Assembly: GCA_031856995.1 (NCBI GenBank) | Contig: GCA_031856995.1_4356.1 | Length of the DNA stretch: 43,888 nt | Source of the DNA: a phage | Reading direction: 5' to 3' (one strand) | In this document: piece after piece, positions 14,408-41,628 of the stretch | Layout: every line of letters starts with the position of its first letter | Position numbering within the stretch: the stretch's first letter is position 1 | Notes under the pieces: model-generated | Databases searched by the model: none | Told to the model about the DNA's origin: nothing | The model's input: the letters and a program-made list of their open reading frames with translations, nothing else | Program-made: the position numbers and the translations under genes

Positions 14408-14436
14408 TTGCGTACCCCAATATAATAGGGTACTAT
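14408..14436 (+). promoter_or_regulatory. sigma70-like promoter with palindromic core, driving the + strand island
   Basis: TTGCGT-17 nt-TACTAT with ATAATAGGGTACTATTC core; same element as at 32985-33013 and 34873-34901. Confidence 0.6.
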
Positions 14437-14451
14437 TCACTTACACCAACA

Positions 14452-16610: not shown

Positions 16611-16640
16611 AAAGGCCCCGAAAGGGGCCTTAGTTTTATG
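16611..16640. terminator. Bidirectional rho-independent terminator (end of + island, after major tail protein gene)
   Basis: GGCCCCGaaaGGGGCC hairpin with A-run upstream and T-run downstream. Confidence 0.75.
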
Positions 16641-20908: not shown

Positions 20909-20967
20909 AATTTACCTCTTAGTAAATGAAAAGAGGGACCGAAGTCCCTCTAGATTATAGCTTAACC

Positions 20968-22017
20968 TTAAGCACCGACACCAGTTACCAGGAAGGCAAT
21001 CGGTACGTGCTTACGTTCAACAACACGGTTCCAGTTAGAGGCGTTCGCCAGGTCCTGCCAGGAAGCAGAACGTGCGACAGTCTCGGTGCCGTTGCCGGTG
21101 ATCACCGCGCCGGTGAAGCTGTAGCCCAGCGGGTGCAGTAACCAGGTCTTACGGGTCCACAGGGTTTCTACGCCACCACCGTTGCCGCGAGACGGTTCGC
21201 GCTCGTATTCCAGCGGGTTGGACGGAGAACCTTCACCGTAACCGATAGCGCCGTTGCCGAAGATGATGGAGATGAACTTACGGGTCGAGCCAGTACCAAC
21301 TACAGTCATGCTGTCATCAACAATCACGCGGTATCCCTGGTAGGTGGCGAACAAGGTGTCGTTGTCGGCGTCTTTGATGAAGTCGATAAGCTGCTGCTTA
21401 CGTGCCTGCGCATAAACGAAGCTGTGCATCGCGATAGCACCCAACACTTCACCGCCGTTACCCATCAGCGCATCACCCATAGTCTGGGTAGCGTCGATGA
21501 ACGCACCTGCGTCGAAGCCCAGAGTAGCGGACACGTCGATAACCATGTCGTTCTGCTCGTGGTACGCATCGGTAGCCGCTACGTTATCATTGTACAGACC
21601 GAGCGCGGTAGCAATAAGACGGCGTTGTGCCTGACGCTGCCAGAAGTTATCCAGACGGGAAGCCACGGATTGCAGCGGATTCTGGCTGGTCAGTTCTACC
21701 GTCAGGTCAGCCTGACCAAAACCTTCGTTCAGGTAAGCTACGCGAACATCCATCTCACCGGTTTGCACGTTACGCGGGGTGGCGACGTCCTGATATACGT
21801 CGTTCGAGTAGTTCGGCTCGATAGAGGTATCAATAGCTTTCCAGTACGGCAGGACCGCTTTGTTGGACGGGCCGTTTGCGATAGCGGCGGCATACGGAGT
21901 CGAGGTAAGGATACCGGACTGGAAGAACGCGGTTTTCTCTACCGGGTCCTCTGTCATGTAGGACAGGATTACCGATTCTTTACCAGTTACGATGTCGCCG
22001 ATAGTAGTAATTGCCAT
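20968..22017 (-). CDS. major capsid protein
   Basis: 349 aa; GAGGA RBS; directly after scaffold gene; position and size. Confidence 0.75.
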   Translation of the reverse strand: MAITTIGDIVTGKESVILSYMTEDPVEKTAFFQSGILTSTPYAAAIANGPSNKAVLPYWKAIDTSIEPNYSNDVYQDVATPRNVQTGEMDVRVAYLNEGFGQADLTVELTSQNPLQSVASRLDNFWQRQAQRRLIATALGLYNDNVAATDAYHEQNDMVIDVSATLGFDAGAFIDATQTMGDALMGNGGEVLGAIAMHSFVYAQARKQQLIDFIKDADNDTLFATYQGYRVIVDDSMTVVGTGSTRKFISIIFGNGAIGYGEGSPSNPLEYEREPSRGNGGGVETLWTRKTWLLHPLGYSFTGAVITGNGTETVARSASWQDLANASNWNRVVERKHVPIAFLVTGVGA

Positions 22018-22721
22018 TATTTTTTCCTCAGGGCTTTAAGTTGCCGTTCAAATTCGGCAGGGTTCGATTCGTACAGAGCGATACGCTCCGCTTCACTCAT
22101 GTCTTTAAACGCTGGTGCGGCCCCGCCGCCTTTGCTACCGGAAGCCCCGCCGCCGGAAGCTGCATTTGCTTTAATCAAATGTGAAAACGCTTTGTGTTCT
22201 CGCAAGTATTTGCGGAACTGTTCCGGGTCAGTCGTGATTACGTTGCCGTCTGCGCCAACAAACTTAGTAACCACATCATCGCCTTCGAACTCAGTCTTAA
22301 CGAACGGCGCAAGAATGTCCACTGCTTCTGGGGTAATAAAGTCACCCGCGAAAGAGCCTAGCACCGCTTTACGTTCGCTGCCGAGGATACGCTCTGCCAT
22401 TCTGGAGATGCGACCGTCTTTCTCGGCTAACACCGGGTCATACTGGCTACGAATCGTCTTTTCGAACTCATCCATCTTACCAGCGGCTTTTAACGCCTCC
22501 TGGTGCGCGCGCTGCCGTTCTTCTTCGGCCTCTTTTGCTTTGCGAGCGGCTTCTTTCTTCTCCGCCAACAATGCTTCCTGATTAGCCTTAAGCCCGGCAA
22601 CTTCTTTCTCAATCAGCGCCTGAACTTCTTCAGCGGTGAACATTTTCGGCGCGTCACCGCCACCAGCTTTATCTTCTGCCCCAGCTTCTTCCTGGAACGG
22701 ATAACGTAAAAAACGATTCAT
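22017..22721 (-). CDS. scaffolding protein
   Basis: Charged, Ala/Glu/Lys-rich coiled-coil protein immediately upstream of capsid gene; likely start at ATG 22721 (track ORF starts 22775). Confidence 0.6.
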   Translation of the reverse strand: MNRFLRYPFQEEAGAEDKAGGGDAPKMFTAEEVQALIEKEVAGLKANQEALLAEKKEAARKAKEAEEERQRAHQEALKAAGKMDEFEKTIRSQYDPVLAEKDGRISRMAERILGSERKAVLGSFAGDFITPEAVDILAPFVKTEFEGDDVVTKFVGADGNVITTDPEQFRKYLREHKAFSHLIKANAASGGGASGSKGGGAAPAFKDMSEAERIALYESNPAEFERQLKALRKK

Positions 22722-22803
22722 AGTCAGTATGTCCCCTGGACGTTGGAACCCGGGCCACCCGGATTTACATGTCAAGAATAAATTATTCCAACATGCAAGG
22801 CAA

Positions 22804-23067
22804 CTATTCCAGAATATTCCTCACGTAGTCCTGCAACATGAACACTTTCAGCCTCAGTTGCCGTACGCATTCGGCGTTCTGAACGTCGATAGCCAAATCC
22901 TCGTCAGCGTCGTTACTTGGCGGAGCCAGTTTGCACGGCGGCTGCATCATTGTCGTATCCGGGGATGGAATTAGCGTTTGCGACGGCGCTGGACTTGAGC
23001 AGGACGCGAGCATCGTCGAAAGTGCACACGCTGCGACCAGGCGTTTTAATGTACTTAACGACTTCAC
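22804..23067 (-). CDS. o-spanin (Rz1-like outer-membrane lipoprotein)
   Basis: Lipobox LASC after signal sequence, Pro-rich mature part; out of frame inside 3' half of i-spanin gene. Confidence 0.7.
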   Translation of the reverse strand: MKSLSTLKRLVAACALSTMLASCSSPAPSQTLIPSPDTTMMQPPCKLAPPSNDADEDLAIDVQNAECVRQLRLKVFMLQDYVRNILE

Positions 23068-23299
23068 GGGTAATTACCTCTGATTTCGTCTTGCCTTCGT
23101 TGTCAGCGGCTGCGGCCTTTGATTCGTCCTGCTGCTGCCGTTGTGTTTTCTTCGCCAACTCAGCCTGTGCTTTCTGCTGTTGCTGAGAAACGAGATTCGC
23201 CCGGCCTTCGTTCCAGCCGCTGCGGTACTGGTAGATGCCGTGTGCGTAAGCCAGGATGACGAAACATGCTCCTGCTACGACAGTTGCTTTAAGATTCAT
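22913..23299 (-). CDS. i-spanin (Rz-like)
   Basis: N-terminal TM anchor VVAGACFVILAYAHG, Gln/Ala/Lys-rich coiled-coil periplasmic part; AAGGAG RBS. Confidence 0.7.
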   Translation of the reverse strand: MNLKATVVAGACFVILAYAHGIYQYRSGWNEGRANLVSQQQQKAQAELAKKTQRQQQDESKAAAADNEGKTKSEVITREVVKYIKTPGRSVCTFDDARVLLKSSAVANANSIPGYDNDAAAVQTGSAK

Positions 23300-23550
23300 G
23301 TTTCTCCTTTCTCGATAAGTAAAGCCCCGCTTTAAGGCGGGGCGCTAGTCCTTATCATTTAAACATAGAAACGGCGTAATCTCAGTAAACCCGTTACTTT
23401 TTACACGAGCAATAGAGTATGGCCCTTCCGAACGCGTCAGCGTAACTACACTCATGACTTACGTCCCGCTCCGTTACCTGCCCGCGCCGCGGTCGCTTGT
23501 TCATACTTCACAAGCTCAGGTGGAGCTTAGCACATTTTTAGTGAAAAGTC

Positions 23551-23566
23551 AACTATTCGAATAGTT
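23551..23566. promoter_or_regulatory. Perfect 16-bp palindrome AACTATTCGAATAGTT
   Basis: Direct reading; half-sites are those of the recurring promoter palindrome but in inverted arrangement. Confidence 0.5.
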
Positions 23567-23604
23567 TATTCCTACATTTACAATTTGGTGGAATAACTGG
23601 AATA

Positions 23605-23632
23605 ATCACAGGCATTAAAAAGCCCCTTTCGG
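23605..23632 (-). terminator. Rho-independent terminator
   Basis: GCCCCtttcGGGGC hairpin with T-run on - strand. Confidence 0.7.
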
Positions 23633-23641
23633 GGCCTAAGT

Positions 23642-24103
23642 TTATTCTGGCTTAGTGACCTTCGCCGCTTTGCTGACAGCCTCTACACCATCGGCATCAG
23701 TAACTTTAACGAAGTATTCCCCAACAGAATTAACCGTCAGAGACAAAGCCTCTTCCGGGGCGTTAACCACTTCCTTCCCGTCTTTGTACCAGGTCAGCGC
23801 ATATGGTGCTTTGCCCGCCTTAACTTCGACAGCGATATTTGCGCTGCCGTCTGCCAGTTCAGCGTCCTGCGGTTGTACGGAGAAATACACATCACCAGCA
23901 TCCGCCAGGTACTGAATCTCATAAAGCATGCCCGCCGCCGGTAGCGCAATACCGGTTTTATCTGCAAACGGCATATCGTCTACGGGCGCACCCAGTACAC
24001 TTTCATCTTCAATAAATACCACGTTCTCGCCGGAGCCAGGCACACGGGCGTACTGGACTACGCGACGCGACGGTACATCAGTTACTTTGAAAAAGCCCAT
24101 CAT
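23642..24103 (-). CDS. Ig-like domain protein
   Basis: APYALTWYKDGKEV...GEYFVKVTDADG Big-like signature. Confidence 0.55.
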   Translation of the reverse strand: MMGFFKVTDVPSRRVVQYARVPGSGENVVFIEDESVLGAPVDDMPFADKTGIALPAAGMLYEIQYLADAGDVYFSVQPQDAELADGSANIAVEVKAGKAPYALTWYKDGKEVVNAPEEALSLTVNSVGEYFVKVTDADGVEAVSKAAKVTKPE

Positions 24104-25179
24104 TATTCCCCTTTCAGATAATCAGCAACACGTTTATCGAGTTCCGCCATCTGCTTAAGCGTGAGCGGATTCCCGAAACCATCTACAGATATTACGCGAA
24201 ACTCTTCCGGCGATATACCGCTGTTACGGAAAATCTTACCCCGCACCGGGCCTAGAGCCTGGTCCTGAAACCATGCCGGTTGTTGTTTCAGGAACTCGTA
24301 GTAAGTGGTGTCTGCGCTTACCTGAGTACCTCCGTCCGCACCCTTAGCCGCGCGTTTTGCGCCTTTATCCAGGAAGTCGAACTCCGAACTGATTACCGGA
24401 GCCGTGCACGACCGGCAGTTCGGATGGGCGGGGGGCATCGGCCCTTTACCGATTTCCCACGTCATCCCATCTCTGGCCTTGCAAACGGCTGAGGTCCTAG
24501 AATCAAGAGTAGACACCCACTCATATTTCTCGATAATGTCGTCGTTCTGGCGGTACGTCTCATTACGGGCTTCGTTGGACACGTGGGACAGCGCGGTGCG
24601 GATTACTGTAGCAGCGTGTTTCTCTGATACGTCAGCCAGGCCGCCTTTACCAACTACTTCTTTAACAATCTGCCGTGTGGTTTGGCCTTGCACAAAGCCC
24701 ATCTTAACGCCAGTTACAAGGCGCGCGACCTCCGCTTCACCCCAGCCTGACATCAGCTTGGTGAAGTCAACAGGCTTGTCGCTCAACGATAAGGGTTGAA
24801 ACTCGGCGGCGGCCCACACCTGTTCAGCGGTAGGCGTAACAAATTCCGCGTTTACGTTGGCGGTCAGTGTCTTTACGTTCCACTCCGCCTCATACGCCGC
24901 CAGTTCCTTAAGGTCTTCTGTCAGCTTTGTTTGCCAGTCAACTGTAAGTCCAGCCAGTGCTTCTTCAAGGTCGCGTAACAGTTTATTCAGCCGGGCGGTG
25001 CTGCGGCCATCATCGCCGAATAACAGCACCTGCCGTTTGATTTCGTCCCGCATCTCCTGAATGAACGGTGCTAGGTCTTTCACCTCACCGGATGCAGTAC
25101 GTTGCAGCCATATCTGGTGGCTAATTAGAGATGTAAGTAAGCTCATAGATAAACCCTGCGGTGCTAAAGTTAATAGCAT
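24103..25179 (-). CDS. head morphogenesis protein (Mu F / SPP1 gp7-like)
   Basis: 358 aa directly after portal gene; C-terminal AHPNCRSC motif. Confidence 0.65.
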   Translation of the reverse strand: MLLTLAPQGLSMSLLTSLISHQIWLQRTASGEVKDLAPFIQEMRDEIKRQVLLFGDDGRSTARLNKLLRDLEEALAGLTVDWQTKLTEDLKELAAYEAEWNVKTLTANVNAEFVTPTAEQVWAAAEFQPLSLSDKPVDFTKLMSGWGEAEVARLVTGVKMGFVQGQTTRQIVKEVVGKGGLADVSEKHAATVIRTALSHVSNEARNETYRQNDDIIEKYEWVSTLDSRTSAVCKARDGMTWEIGKGPMPPAHPNCRSCTAPVISSEFDFLDKGAKRAAKGADGGTQVSADTTYYEFLKQQPAWFQDQALGPVRGKIFRNSGISPEEFRVISVDGFGNPLTLKQMAELDKRVADYLKGE

Positions 25180-30720: not shown

Positions 30721-31206
30721 TCATTTAACAGCCCTCCCGATAGCCTCCGCCTCCTGCCACTGTTTACCGTCGAACAACGCCAGACGACCCGCAGTACGGC
30801 GACGCAGACCAAGTAACGGTTTACCATTCTGGTTGATGAACAGCGCCAGCTTAGCCCGCAGCGTCGTGATATCACCAGAACGCAGCGCCTTACCCGTGCC
30901 CGTAGTAGCAGCAATCACGCCAGCGCCCGCGTTATAGACCAGGTCGCAAACAGCATCAAACTGCGCCTGCGTCAGTGAATGGTGCGCTGCTGCGTCAACC
31001 GCAGCTACGGCCTTAGCCATATCACGATTCAGTAACAGGAGGCCTTGCCCTGGAGTGATGGTCCGCCCAGCCTTAACATGAGGGCCATAGCTTCCGTAGC
31101 CTATTGTAAGGTACTTCTCATTCGGTGTAGCGCGATACGCAGTTCCGCGGAATCCCTCAAATGCAGCGGTAAAATGCAACCCATTATCTGAAATGTTTCG
31201 AGACAC
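30721..31206 (-). CDS. endolysin (GH24 lysozyme-like)
   Basis: FEGFRGTAYRATPNEKYLTIGYGSYGP resembles the T4/lambda-type lysozyme catalytic region; likely GTG start at 31206, 7 nt after GGAGGA (track ORF starts at TTG 31257). Confidence 0.7.
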   Translation of the reverse strand: MSRNISDNGLHFTAAFEGFRGTAYRATPNEKYLTIGYGSYGPHVKAGRTITPGQGLLLLNRDMAKAVAAVDAAAHHSLTQAQFDAVCDLVYNAGAGVIAATTGTGKALRSGDITTLRAKLALFINQNGKPLLGLRRRTAGRLALFDGKQWQEAEAIGRAVK

Positions 31207-31456
31207 GCTTATGTCCTCCGTATGACAGCCACGCCTGACGAATCTGGCGCAGCGCAACTAATGTGATTAATGTCCCAGGCAGCGTTGGCGACATGCTGCC
31301 CTGTAACAGGTGGATGCATCCGGCAGCGCAAACGATAGCGGTCAGGATGTAGAGCACCCGACCAAATAACCCATCGTCAACACTGGGGTGGTATACATTA
31401 AACAGCGATGTGCCACCGATTGCCAGCATACCGCCGAACCAGAATAACTCATTCAT
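31184..31456 (-). CDS. holin/antiholin-like membrane protein
   Basis: 90 aa, two hydrophobic helices, basic C-terminus; directly upstream of endolysin. Confidence 0.55.
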   Translation of the reverse strand: MNELFWFGGMLAIGGTSLFNVYHPSVDDGLFGRVLYILTAIVCAAGCIHLLQGSMSPTLPGTLITLVALRQIRQAWLSYGGHKRVSKHFR

Positions 31457-31757
31457 CCGGGTCTCCTCGACGTGCGATGTATTCTCCGGCGACGATACCG
31501 GAGAGGCGGGAATAGATAGGCATCCAGAGAATAGCGATAATGAAGCCCAGGCCAGCTATCTCGCGTTCGCCGGTAATACCAAACCATTGGGCTGCGAGAG
31601 GCGCACCAAATACGGCGCAGGTGAAGCCGGTAGCGATAAAGCAGAAGCCATCAATAGGGCCAGAAATAACGGACTTATGTTGCCGTAGGCCGATTACCCC
31701 TCCGGCTAGTGCGGCAGCGAGAAGCCACCCCGTCACTGTTTCAGTAAATTTATCCAA
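31449..31757 (-). CDS. putative holin
   Basis: 102 aa with three hydrophobic segments and charged C-terminus; first gene of lysis cassette. Confidence 0.6.
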   Translation of the reverse strand: MDKFTETVTGWLLAAALAGGVIGLRQHKSVISGPIDGFCFIATGFTCAVFGAPLAAQWFGITGEREIAGLGFIIAILWMPIYSRLSGIVAGEYIARRGDPDE

Positions 31758-32952: not shown

Positions 32953-32984
32953 TTCGTTTTCCTCTGTCTCGTCTGTGTAAATGA

Positions 32985-33013
32985 ATAGTAGCCTATTCTA
33001 TCTTAGTGTGCAA
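32985..33013 (-). promoter_or_regulatory. sigma70-like promoter with palindromic core
   Basis: On - strand TTGCAC-17 nt-TACTAT; core GAATAGTAGCCTATTC is a perfect 6+4+6 palindrome. Confidence 0.6.
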
Positions 33014-34838: not shown

Positions 34839-34872
34839 TTCTAAATTCCTTATGTCTCGTTTCGATAAGTGA

Positions 34873-34901
34873 ATAGTAACCTATTATGTTGGGGTGTGCA
34901 A
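34873..34901 (-). promoter_or_regulatory. sigma70-like promoter with palindromic core (leftward early promoter)
   Basis: On - strand TTGCAC-17 nt-TACTAT; core GAATAGTAACCTATT. Confidence 0.6.
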
Positions 34902-34973
34902 GAGAATAGTTACGTTGCCGTTGTGATTCTTCGGGGAGGGTTGTGCCTTTATTCTTATTACTTGGTAACTAAA

Positions 34974-34993
34974 GGGCAGGCTTAAGCCTGCCC
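34974..34993. other. Perfect stem-loop GGGCAGGCttaaGCCTGCCC in the divergent intergenic (origin-like) region
   Basis: 8-bp perfect inverted repeat with 4-nt loop. Confidence 0.6.
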
Positions 34994-35259
34994 AATAATC
35001 GTTACATTTTTACGGTTGCGAATCTACGGCACATTAAGAAACAGTAGATATTTCAGCGGGTTACTTCTTTAAATGAGATTTAGATACACTTATCCTTAAA
35101 CCCCAAGGCAAGCATCTCAGCTGTCTGGGAGGGGTTGACGAATCCCTCGGGGAGGGTTCGTCAACTCCGTAATATATACAAGTCCCAAAACCATTATACA
35201 AACATGTGTCAAGAACTTTCAATAACATTTTTGTAAAGATTAAATATTACAGAGATTGG

Positions 35260-38503: not shown

Positions 38504-38532
38504 TTGACATGTGAATAGTTCGCTATTATAGT
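38504..38532 (+). promoter_or_regulatory. sigma70-like rightward promoter with palindromic core
   Basis: TTGACA-17 nt-TATAGT; core GAATAGTTCGCTATT. Confidence 0.6.
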
Positions 38533-41599: not shown

Positions 41600-41628
41600 T
41601 TGACATCTGAATAGTTAGCTATTATAGT
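41600..41628 (+). promoter_or_regulatory. sigma70-like promoter with palindromic core
   Basis: TTGACA-17 nt-TATAGT; core GAATAGTTAGCTATT. Confidence 0.6.

Follow-up and report, generated by a model that had tools for sequence, protein, structure and literature searches.

In phage lambda the two-component spanin pair Rz/Rz1 is made up of a type II inner-membrane protein and an outer-membrane lipoprotein with periplasmic Cys residues, encoded in different frames, with Rz1 fully embedded, in the S-R-Rz cassette behind pR′. LysB/LysC of phage P2, the prototype of the overlapped architecture, are located in a lysis cassette. The T4 spanin genes, pseT.3/pseT.2, lie away from the holin (t) and endolysin (e) genes and include an o-spanin (the outer-membrane lipoprotein of a pair, the i-spanin being its inner-membrane partner) with a predicted C-terminal helix (PMC6139136). 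Kongari et al. (2018; PMC6139136) list 'P2' among the overlapped families, together with a 27-member 'Jersey' i-spanin family that has a matching o-spanin family, belongs to the class 'Overlapped' with a 155-bp overlap and includes Jersey, SETP3, K1G, K1H, K1ind1-3 and HK578. Here, a candidate spanin pair at positions 22,804 to 23,299 of a 43,888-nucleotide (nt) stretch of phage DNA (GenBank assembly GCA_031856995.1, contig GCA_031856995.1_4356.1; the whole stretch is referred to as the window) was compared with these systems. The pair is recognisable as an already known member of the curated 'Jersey' overlapped family in its usual position.

The reading favoured here, given a probability of about 0.88, is that the two genes encode a functional two-component 'Jersey' spanin pair, overlapped, which heads the scaffold/capsid unit behind a terminator, a promoter with regulator half-sites and a structured leader. 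The leader is the sole element of the locus for which no description was found in the literature. Positions of the features are collected in Table 1.

The spanin genes and their products

A first-pass annotation of the window had proposed a two-component pair with an N-terminal transmembrane (TM) anchor in the i-spanin and a Pro-rich o-spanin with an LASC lipobox, and these proposals are borne out. Both open reading frames (ORFs) are on the minus strand where it had placed them, and PHROG matches, hydropathy and the lipobox agree. The i-spanin matches phrog_2536 (5e-55) over its full length and residues 8–86 of the o-spanin match phrog_1267 (2e-18), both families being labelled 'Rz-like spanin'. 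The top-scoring 19-residue Kyte-Doolittle segment of the i-spanin is residues 5–23 (score 1.71), and of its Cys residues one is in the TM segment and one (C92) is periplasmic. A single-sequence AlphaFold2 model has one unbroken helix over residues 3–64 (predicted local distance difference test score 72–86), and beyond residue 64 is of low confidence and uninformative on a coiled coil. The N-terminus of the o-spanin, MKSLSTLKRLVAACALSTMLASC, matches a PS51257-like lipobox pattern with Cys23 (codon at 23001–22999) as the lipidated residue and Ser at +2, where the inner-membrane retention residue Asp is absent. The mature protein of 65 amino acids (aa) contains 12% Pro and 3 Cys counting Cys23, and consists of a Pro-rich linker followed by a conserved C-terminal helix-like segment with 2 Cys.

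The architecture was misnamed. The o-spanin gene had been called embedded, but it starts 155 nt before the i-spanin stop and runs 109 nt past that stop at 22913, and is thus overlapped, not embedded, in the nomenclature of Summer and Young and of Kongari et al., as in the class given for the family (PMC6139136). The label 'Rz/Rz1-type' stands for function and topology, the two-component logic, the different frames and the periplasmic Cys being those of lambda, but not for sequence, as there is no Pfam-level similarity to Rz/Rz1. Moreover, the o-spanin is longer than Rz1 and has a predicted C-terminal helix, its gene overlaps and extends beyond the i-spanin gene, and 7.4 kb lie between the pair and the holin and endolysin genes.

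The dN/dS (nonsynonymous to synonymous rate) ratios from pairwise comparisons of 36 Kagunavirus sequences are 0.11 for the non-overlapping part of the i-spanin gene and 0.04 for the unique part of the o-spanin gene, and within the overlap 0.37 in the i-frame and 0.83 in the o-frame. Relatives examined were 53, comprising 47 viral contigs and 6 loci from annotated phage records, and the lipobox Cys is present in 54/54 sequences when the source phage is included. This retention and the ratio of 0.04 in the segment unique to the o-spanin show the o-frame to be a genuine gene and not a chance ORF. The opposite view, that the o-frame arose by chance or that the pair is some other couple of membrane protein and lipoprotein, for instance one for superinfection exclusion, would accommodate the distance from holin and endolysin, the absence of a Pfam family at E (expectation value) ≤ 0.01 for either protein, the lambda Rz/Rz1 models included, and the fact that no published complementation or lipid-labelling experiment, or other experimental validation, was found for the Jersey spanin family. 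It is very improbable, given not only the ratio of 0.04 but also the conservation of the lipobox Cys, two more Cys and the C-terminal segment across four genera (Kagunavirus, Jerseyvirus, Cornellvirus and Dhillonvirus). Spanins are defined by a membrane protein with an N-terminal anchor that is paired, in adjoining or overlapping genes, with an outer-membrane lipoprotein. No second candidate is found beside the endolysin or annotated anywhere in the near-identical genome PQ417132, and the authors who defined spanins have curated the Jersey family among them (PMC6139136).

In all 53 relatives the lipobox ORF overlaps the 3′-end of the i-spanin gene. Across Kagunavirus relatives the overlap is 155 nt and the GTG start, the GAGG ribosome-binding site (RBS) and the lipobox (LASC or LSAC) are kept. 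The overlap is mostly 155 nt in Jerseyvirus (LSGC or the unusual LNGC), 8–14 nt in the Cornellvirus type (Shemara and contig L042; ITGC) and 98 nt in Dhillonvirus (PaulFeyerabend; LSAC). The o-spanins of relatives were settled by inspection, as a decoy VAAC motif and the LNGC lipobox mislead an automatic search. The likeness of the pair to the Jersey family extends to the 155-nt overlap, the two conserved Cys of the mature o-spanin, the C-terminal helix-like segment and the genomic position, and there is no substantial difference, the lipobox being LASC here and LSAC in many relatives. The same two ORFs are annotated 'putative spanin', with the note 'overlapping gene', in K1ind1 (GU196279, 2010), which shares ∼92% DNA identity with the source phage over the locus and 92% identity between i-spanin proteins. 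Many other relatives likewise have the genes annotated as overlapping spanins.

Automated annotations call an o-spanin of 47–48 aa that lacks the signal peptide and lipobox (L001 2308–2454, L003 2305–2448), and phrog_5672 is a 47-position profile that spans only the C-terminal part of the o-spanin. Pharokka/PHROG-style annotation thus shortens the o-spanin, and the correct 87-aa gene with its GTG start is easily lost.

Between Kagunavirus and Jerseyvirus, i-spanins are 60–65% identical (relatives including SETP13 and AG11) and scaffold proteins ∼88% identical, and the spanins diverge faster than the neighbouring genes. Contig L042 (3001–3589) combines a Kagunavirus backbone and leader with Cornellvirus-type spanins (a 118-aa i-spanin, ITGC lipobox and 14-nt overlap). 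This mosaic points to exchange of the spanin cassette between genera.

Table 1. Positions of features in the window; the last three rows give positions in contigs of relatives.
Feature	Position	Strand	Description
i-spanin gene	22913–23299	minus	128 aa, ATG start; N-terminal TM anchor at about residues 5–23, long periplasmic helix
i-spanin RBS	23309–23304		AAGGAG
o-spanin gene	22804–23067	minus	87 aa, GTG start, frame other than that of the i-spanin
o-spanin RBS	23080–23077		GAGG
Leader	23300–23523	minus	∼220 nt, from promoter to i-spanin AUG
Leader core	23418–23523	minus	P1 hairpin, nested helices P2-P3-P4; conserved internal loops RAGC and GAGUGUA
Leader 3′ domain	23300–23399 (23294–23399 as modelled)	minus	small hairpin, then long irregular hairpin (RNAalifold)
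GC-rich hairpin	23343–23324		7 GC pairs
Putative sigma-70-like promoter	23524–23552	minus	−35 TTGACT (23552–23547), 17-nt spacer, extended −10 TGcTAAGCT (hexamer 23529–23524)
GAATA/TATTC half-site array	23548–23606	minus	TTATTCC twice, GGAATAA, palindrome CTATTCGAATAG abutting the −35
Insertion hot spot	23607–23616		between Hoc-like terminator and half-site array
Intrinsic terminator	23617–23637	minus	directly past Hoc-like stop; stem GGCCCC, loop GAAA, stem GGGGCU, U5 run
Hoc-like immunoglobulin-domain (Ig) protein gene	23642–24103		spanin neighbour
MuF gene	24103–25179		spanin neighbour
o-spanin 3′ end and 82-nt gap to scaffold ATG	22722–22845	minus	second array, invariant hairpin CCGGGTGGCCCGG, scaffold RBS
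Second half-site array	22745–22845	minus	GGAATATTC, GGAATAG including o-spanin stop, GGAATAATTTATTC, then TTGACA
Scaffold gene	ATG at 22721		spanin neighbour
Capsid gene	20968–22017		spanin neighbour
Intrinsic terminator	20932–20951	minus	just past capsid gene
Intrinsic terminator	16612–16631	minus	bidirectional, adjoining opposite-strand gene cluster
Holin genes	31449–31757 and 31184–31456		
Endolysin	within 30721–31257		PF00959 (1.7e-25); canonical, without N-terminal membrane segment
Palindrome GAATAGT-N4-CTATT	2118–2131, 14424–14437, 32984–32997, 34872–34885, 38514–38527, 41610–41623		
Early-left promoter-like sequence	∼35225–35190		TTGAAA, 18 nt, TATAAT
Bipartite hairpin of early-left leader	34951–35043	minus	GUAAC, then GGGCAGGC-UUAA-GCCUGCCC, then UUUA-GUUAC
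Leader-core paralogue, L093	1787–1894	minus	
Leader-core paralogue, L089	11816–11923	minus	
Leader-core paralogue, L083	21–128		

A 3.2-kb query around the spanin locus returned 482 phage records, of which the top ones are Escherichia Kagunavirus (Guernseyvirinae) phages matching at full length with 92–96% identity, and the source phage is assigned to this genus. Every gene near the spanin pair is on the minus strand. According to the map of PQ417132, the leftward run opens with small genes, two holin genes and the endolysin gene and about ten small hypothetical genes, continues with terminase, portal, MuF, the Hoc-like Ig protein, the intergenic gap and the two spanins, and closes with scaffold, major capsid and other head and tail genes. 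Displacement from the holin and endolysin genes (30721–31757) had been put at about 7.5 kb; from the end of the endolysin gene to the start of the i-spanin gene it is 7.4 kb, with small genes and the terminase, portal, MuF and Hoc-like genes intervening. The claimed location between head morphogenesis and scaffold/capsid genes is likewise upheld, the MuF/Hoc-like block being on one side and scaffold and capsid on the other.

This position, which the first-pass annotation had suggested checking in related genomes, is shared. The pair sits within the head module in 52/52 Guernseyvirinae relatives, and the order MuF, Hoc-like, intergenic region, spanins, scaffold, capsid is found in 50 of them. 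The two exceptions are a short contig without the upstream genes and Klebsiella phage 37P2, which has no Hoc-like match and in which the spanin is still downstream of a MuF-like gene. In Dhillonvirus the pair is between MuF-like and capsid genes, with the i-spanin gene overlapping the end of the MuF gene and no intergenic region. This location therefore goes back to the ancestor of a large siphophage group, and is not a recent displacement. Published descriptions of relatives agree, the spanins of fBC-Eco01 being gp11/12 with holins and endolysin near the genome end (fBC-Eco01 paper), and those of phage Schulenberg being stated to be apart from holin and endolysin (phage Schulenberg paper). 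The T4 genes are similarly remote from holin and endolysin, but they are separated rather than overlapping, are outside the head module and have no detected homology to the pair here. LysB/LysC belong to another sequence family and are in a lysis cassette, whereas the pair here is unlinked.

Terminator, putative promoter and half-site arrays

An RBS of its own and an intergenic region of about 340 bp had been described for the pair, and both are present, the gap between the Hoc-like and i-spanin genes being 342 nt. The terminator placed near the spanins has to be moved: the canonical one is that directly past the Hoc-like stop, and the hairpin at 23343–23324 has a poor U-tract. The Hoc-like terminator is kept in Kagunavirus and Jerseyvirus with varying loop and stem, and was omitted from the program scan for terminators solely through its U-window rule.

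The segment at 23524–23552 is taken to be a promoter. Its −10 retains the key A at −11 and T at −7, and the aligned Jerseyvirus element is mostly TAGACT (TTGACT in one), 17 nt and TGyTACGCT. Among the Kagunavirus and Jerseyvirus relatives, 47 have sufficient sequence upstream, and in these the block that reaches from the half-site array to the i-spanin ATG is kept at a fixed distance from that ATG (−306 in Kagunavirus, −279 in Jerseyvirus). Intergenic length in relatives nevertheless ranges from 320 to 1693 bp, which places every insertion between the terminator and the array. This hot spot (relatives L007–L053) contains small hypothetical ORFs in some relatives and an opposite-strand metallophosphatase gene in Shemara. 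A plus-strand promoter called by the scan at 23577–23606 was set aside, since it falls within the half-site array and has no conserved plus-strand gene to go with it in the window.

The array abutting the −35 is the densest cluster of GAATA/TATTC half-sites in the source phage. The composite GGAATAA-N2/3-TATTC occurs twice, at 23559–23572 and 22776–22789, both on the minus strand, with 0.03 occurrences expected; the two positions are the two densest half-site clusters and bracket the spanins. In Shemara, where a further gene intervenes between the element of the second array and the spanins, that element still accompanies the scaffold gene. The o-spanin–scaffold gap was also considered as a second sigma-70 promoter and discarded, having a perfect TTGACA but no usable −10 at 16–18 nt.

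A related palindrome, GAATAGT-N4-CTATT, is in or beside promoter-like sequences at six other places, and at 38514 and 41610 it is in the spacer between TTGACA and TATAGT. It matches a repeated consensus reported for a Kagunavirus with PHIRE (fBC-Eco01 paper). The arrays and palindromes are probably operators of one phage regulator, and it is plausible that this regulator represses those six promoters and acts differently at the spanin/capsid promoter. Klebsiella phage 37P2 (L004 3650–3982) has five copies of TTGCGAG upstream of the spanin and no GAATAG half-sites, which suggests a lineage-specific regulator at the same control point.

The leader and its paralogue

The leader is more conserved than expected of spacer DNA. 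Single-sequence folds of the Kagunavirus leader cores agree, and a covariance model of the core (R1), built from 16 Kagunavirus sequences only, finds the Jerseyvirus copies (E 4e-5 to 9e-4) and a single copy in the source phage. In the R1 alignment 96.3% of cells are paired, compared with 89.1% in shuffles, and 10 pairs change on both sides, a number not reached in any of 500 shuffles. Over this and a further count, 95–96% are paired (87–89% in shuffles) and 10–12 pairs change on both sides, with 0 of 500 shuffles as high. When the register of the core is slid, 27–43% are paired. A model of the 3′ domain (R2) likewise finds Jerseyvirus copies (E 3e-5 to 1e-3), with 95.9% of cells paired (87.2% in shuffles) and 11 pairs changing on both sides; over core and 3′ domain together the slid-register controls span 27–55%. 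Many G-U pairs of the leader are possible solely on the minus-strand transcript.

The basal helix of the 3′ domain pairs GUUUCU (23372–23367) with AGAAAC (23305–23300), which covers the last two bases of the i-spanin RBS and the spacer before the AUG. It changes from U-A to A-U in 6 sequences and has the Jerseyvirus counterpart GUAU/AUAC, and the lower stem is GAUAAG/CUUAUC in Kagunavirus and UAUACG/CGUAUA in Jerseyvirus.

Searches of Rfam at E ≤ 1 found nothing relevant in 22600–23800 or in the Jerseyvirus, Cornellvirus and Klebsiella-phage loci. Neither R1 nor R2 matches in Shemara, 37P2 or Dhillonvirus, and the leader is therefore not universal in the subfamily. Two 36-aa ORFs within it (23345–23455 and 23394–23504) were rejected as genes, being unconserved in a region with RNA-type covariation; the ATG of the first reads CTG in most relatives. 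At 23453–23455 (minus strand) the source phage has GUCAUG and most relatives GUCCUG, a change that weakens helix P4 and creates this ATG.

A loose DNA pattern scan of viral contigs gave mostly chance matches, and after filtering with R1 only Guernseyvirinae-type contigs were left. Three Kagunavirus contigs carry a diverged second leader core (70–73 bits with R1). In L093 the leftward early operon is headed by the paralogue, which has an almost identical promoter, TTGACTTTTACTAAGAAATATGGTAAGCT, before it and is divergent from a helix-turn-helix regulator gene and a helicase-primase gene. In L089 it is 11.6 kb from the primary copy, a spacing that gives the same genomic position as in L093. P1 and P2 are kept save for one C-G to U-A change in P2, and the arms of P3 and P4 are swapped for other complementary sequences while the loop motifs RAGC and GAGUG are retained. 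The P3 and P4 arms are also swapped for different complementary sequences in Jerseyvirus, and with the paralogues included compensatory changes are seen in 7 of 8 P3 pairs.

That the upstream region functions purely as DNA, whether for protein binding, for packaging or as an origin, with RNA structure incidental, has a slim chance of being correct. It would sit well with the half-site arrays and palindromes, which are clearly DNA-type signals, and with the near invariance of the leader within Kagunavirus, which by itself is silent on RNA structure. It does not account for the both-side changes with pairing kept in 10–12 core pairs and 11 pairs of the 3′ domain, the loss of pairing in slid registers, the numerous strand-specific G-U pairs or the replacement of the P3/P4 arms by different complementary sequences.

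The paralogue is absent from the genome of the source phage, where the corresponding place has a different promoter. The early-left leader behind it contains a bipartite hairpin that is a weak R2 match, is built like the spanin-proximal hairpin (lower stem, internal loop, GC-rich tip) and may serve as a processing site or terminate transcription.

In lambdoid phages, the HK022 put RNAs are promoter-proximal structured leader RNAs of an operon. The region downstream of lambda pR′, with its 6S RNA, and StxS (PMC7547250) resemble the present layout in that a short structured RNA, downstream of a constitutive-looking promoter, heads a long lysis/morphogenesis operon. No sequence or Rfam-model similarity connects these RNAs with the leader here, which has no good terminator after it and no annotated Q-like protein to go with it.

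On such models the spanins could form an independently regulated mini-cassette, in which the hairpin at 23343–23324 would be the true terminator of a small RNA, as in lambda pR′-6S-tR′, and the spanins would need antitermination or read-through, possibly of the put kind. The arrangement of a promoter, a transcript of ∼200 nt and a GC-rich hairpin just before lysis and head genes fits this, as do the two stem-loop units of the core directly past the promoter, the paralogue heading a long early operon in three relatives and the two intrinsic terminators within the late operon, for which tail gene expression needs read-through. The hairpin is, however, the tip of a longer conserved hairpin supported by covariation, in which the bases of the U-tract are paired or in an internal loop. 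Its tail is UUUACUUAUC here and UUAGCGUAU in Jerseyvirus, and because the U-tract is poor and unconserved (UUUAC here, UUAGC in Jerseyvirus, UGUUAC in Shemara) it is probably not a terminator. Neither a Q-like nor an N-like protein is annotated in PQ417132, and the mini-cassette is rather unlikely.

Expression of the spanins and significance of the locus

Independent regulation of the pair had been suggested, and the conserved promoter-like element, the leader and the good upstream terminator speak for a separate start. No terminator is found after the spanins, the scaffold gene begins 82 nt later, and Dhillonvirus has no intergenic region at all. Given a promoter, leader and terminator upstream and no terminator between the pair and the scaffold gene, the spanins appear to open the scaffold/capsid unit and not to form a separately regulated cassette. 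The earlier finding is real and correct in its essentials.

In the favoured reading, the Hoc-like terminator would end the upstream portal-MuF-Hoc transcript, and a sigma-70-type promoter with regulator half-sites would restart transcription. The last helix of the leader, to judge from its pairing and covariation, would partly occlude the translation start of the i-spanin, and synthesis of the spanins would coincide with that of the capsid proteins, probably at a reduced level. The i-spanin, a type II protein of the inner membrane, and the o-spanin, a lipoprotein of the outer membrane, would bind through their periplasmic C-terminal parts and so bridge the periplasm. Once the holin and endolysin steps are complete, the pair would disrupt the outer membrane, most likely by membrane fusion as inferred from lambda Rz/Rz1.

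Some observations lower confidence in this reading, beginning with the Pfam and experimental negatives given above. Q, A and K abound in the periplasmic helix of the i-spanin, whose heptad character is weak, and the −10 of the promoter matches only 3 of 6 consensus positions, below the threshold of the scan. Most double changes in the leader separate the two genera, so that they represent few independent events, and the alignments behind the pair counts were fitted to the models.

It is possible, at somewhat short of an even chance, that in the ∼220-nt leader the Guernseyvirinae have a conserved and previously undescribed structured RNA module that acts in cis, placed before the spanin-scaffold-capsid operon and, in certain genomes, also before the leftward early one. 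Either the GUUUCU/AGAAAC helix would set translation of the first cistron, or the module would govern elongation and read-through of the long operon by processive antitermination of the put type. The GAATA/TATTC arrays on either side would then mark a switch by one phage regulator that represses early promoters and also acts here.

The spanin pair itself matters little, being a textbook member of a curated family in the usual place. If functional, the leader would count as a new RNA element of phages, through which regulation enters the structural-gene operon in a subfamily widely used for therapy and biocontrol of Salmonella and E. coli.

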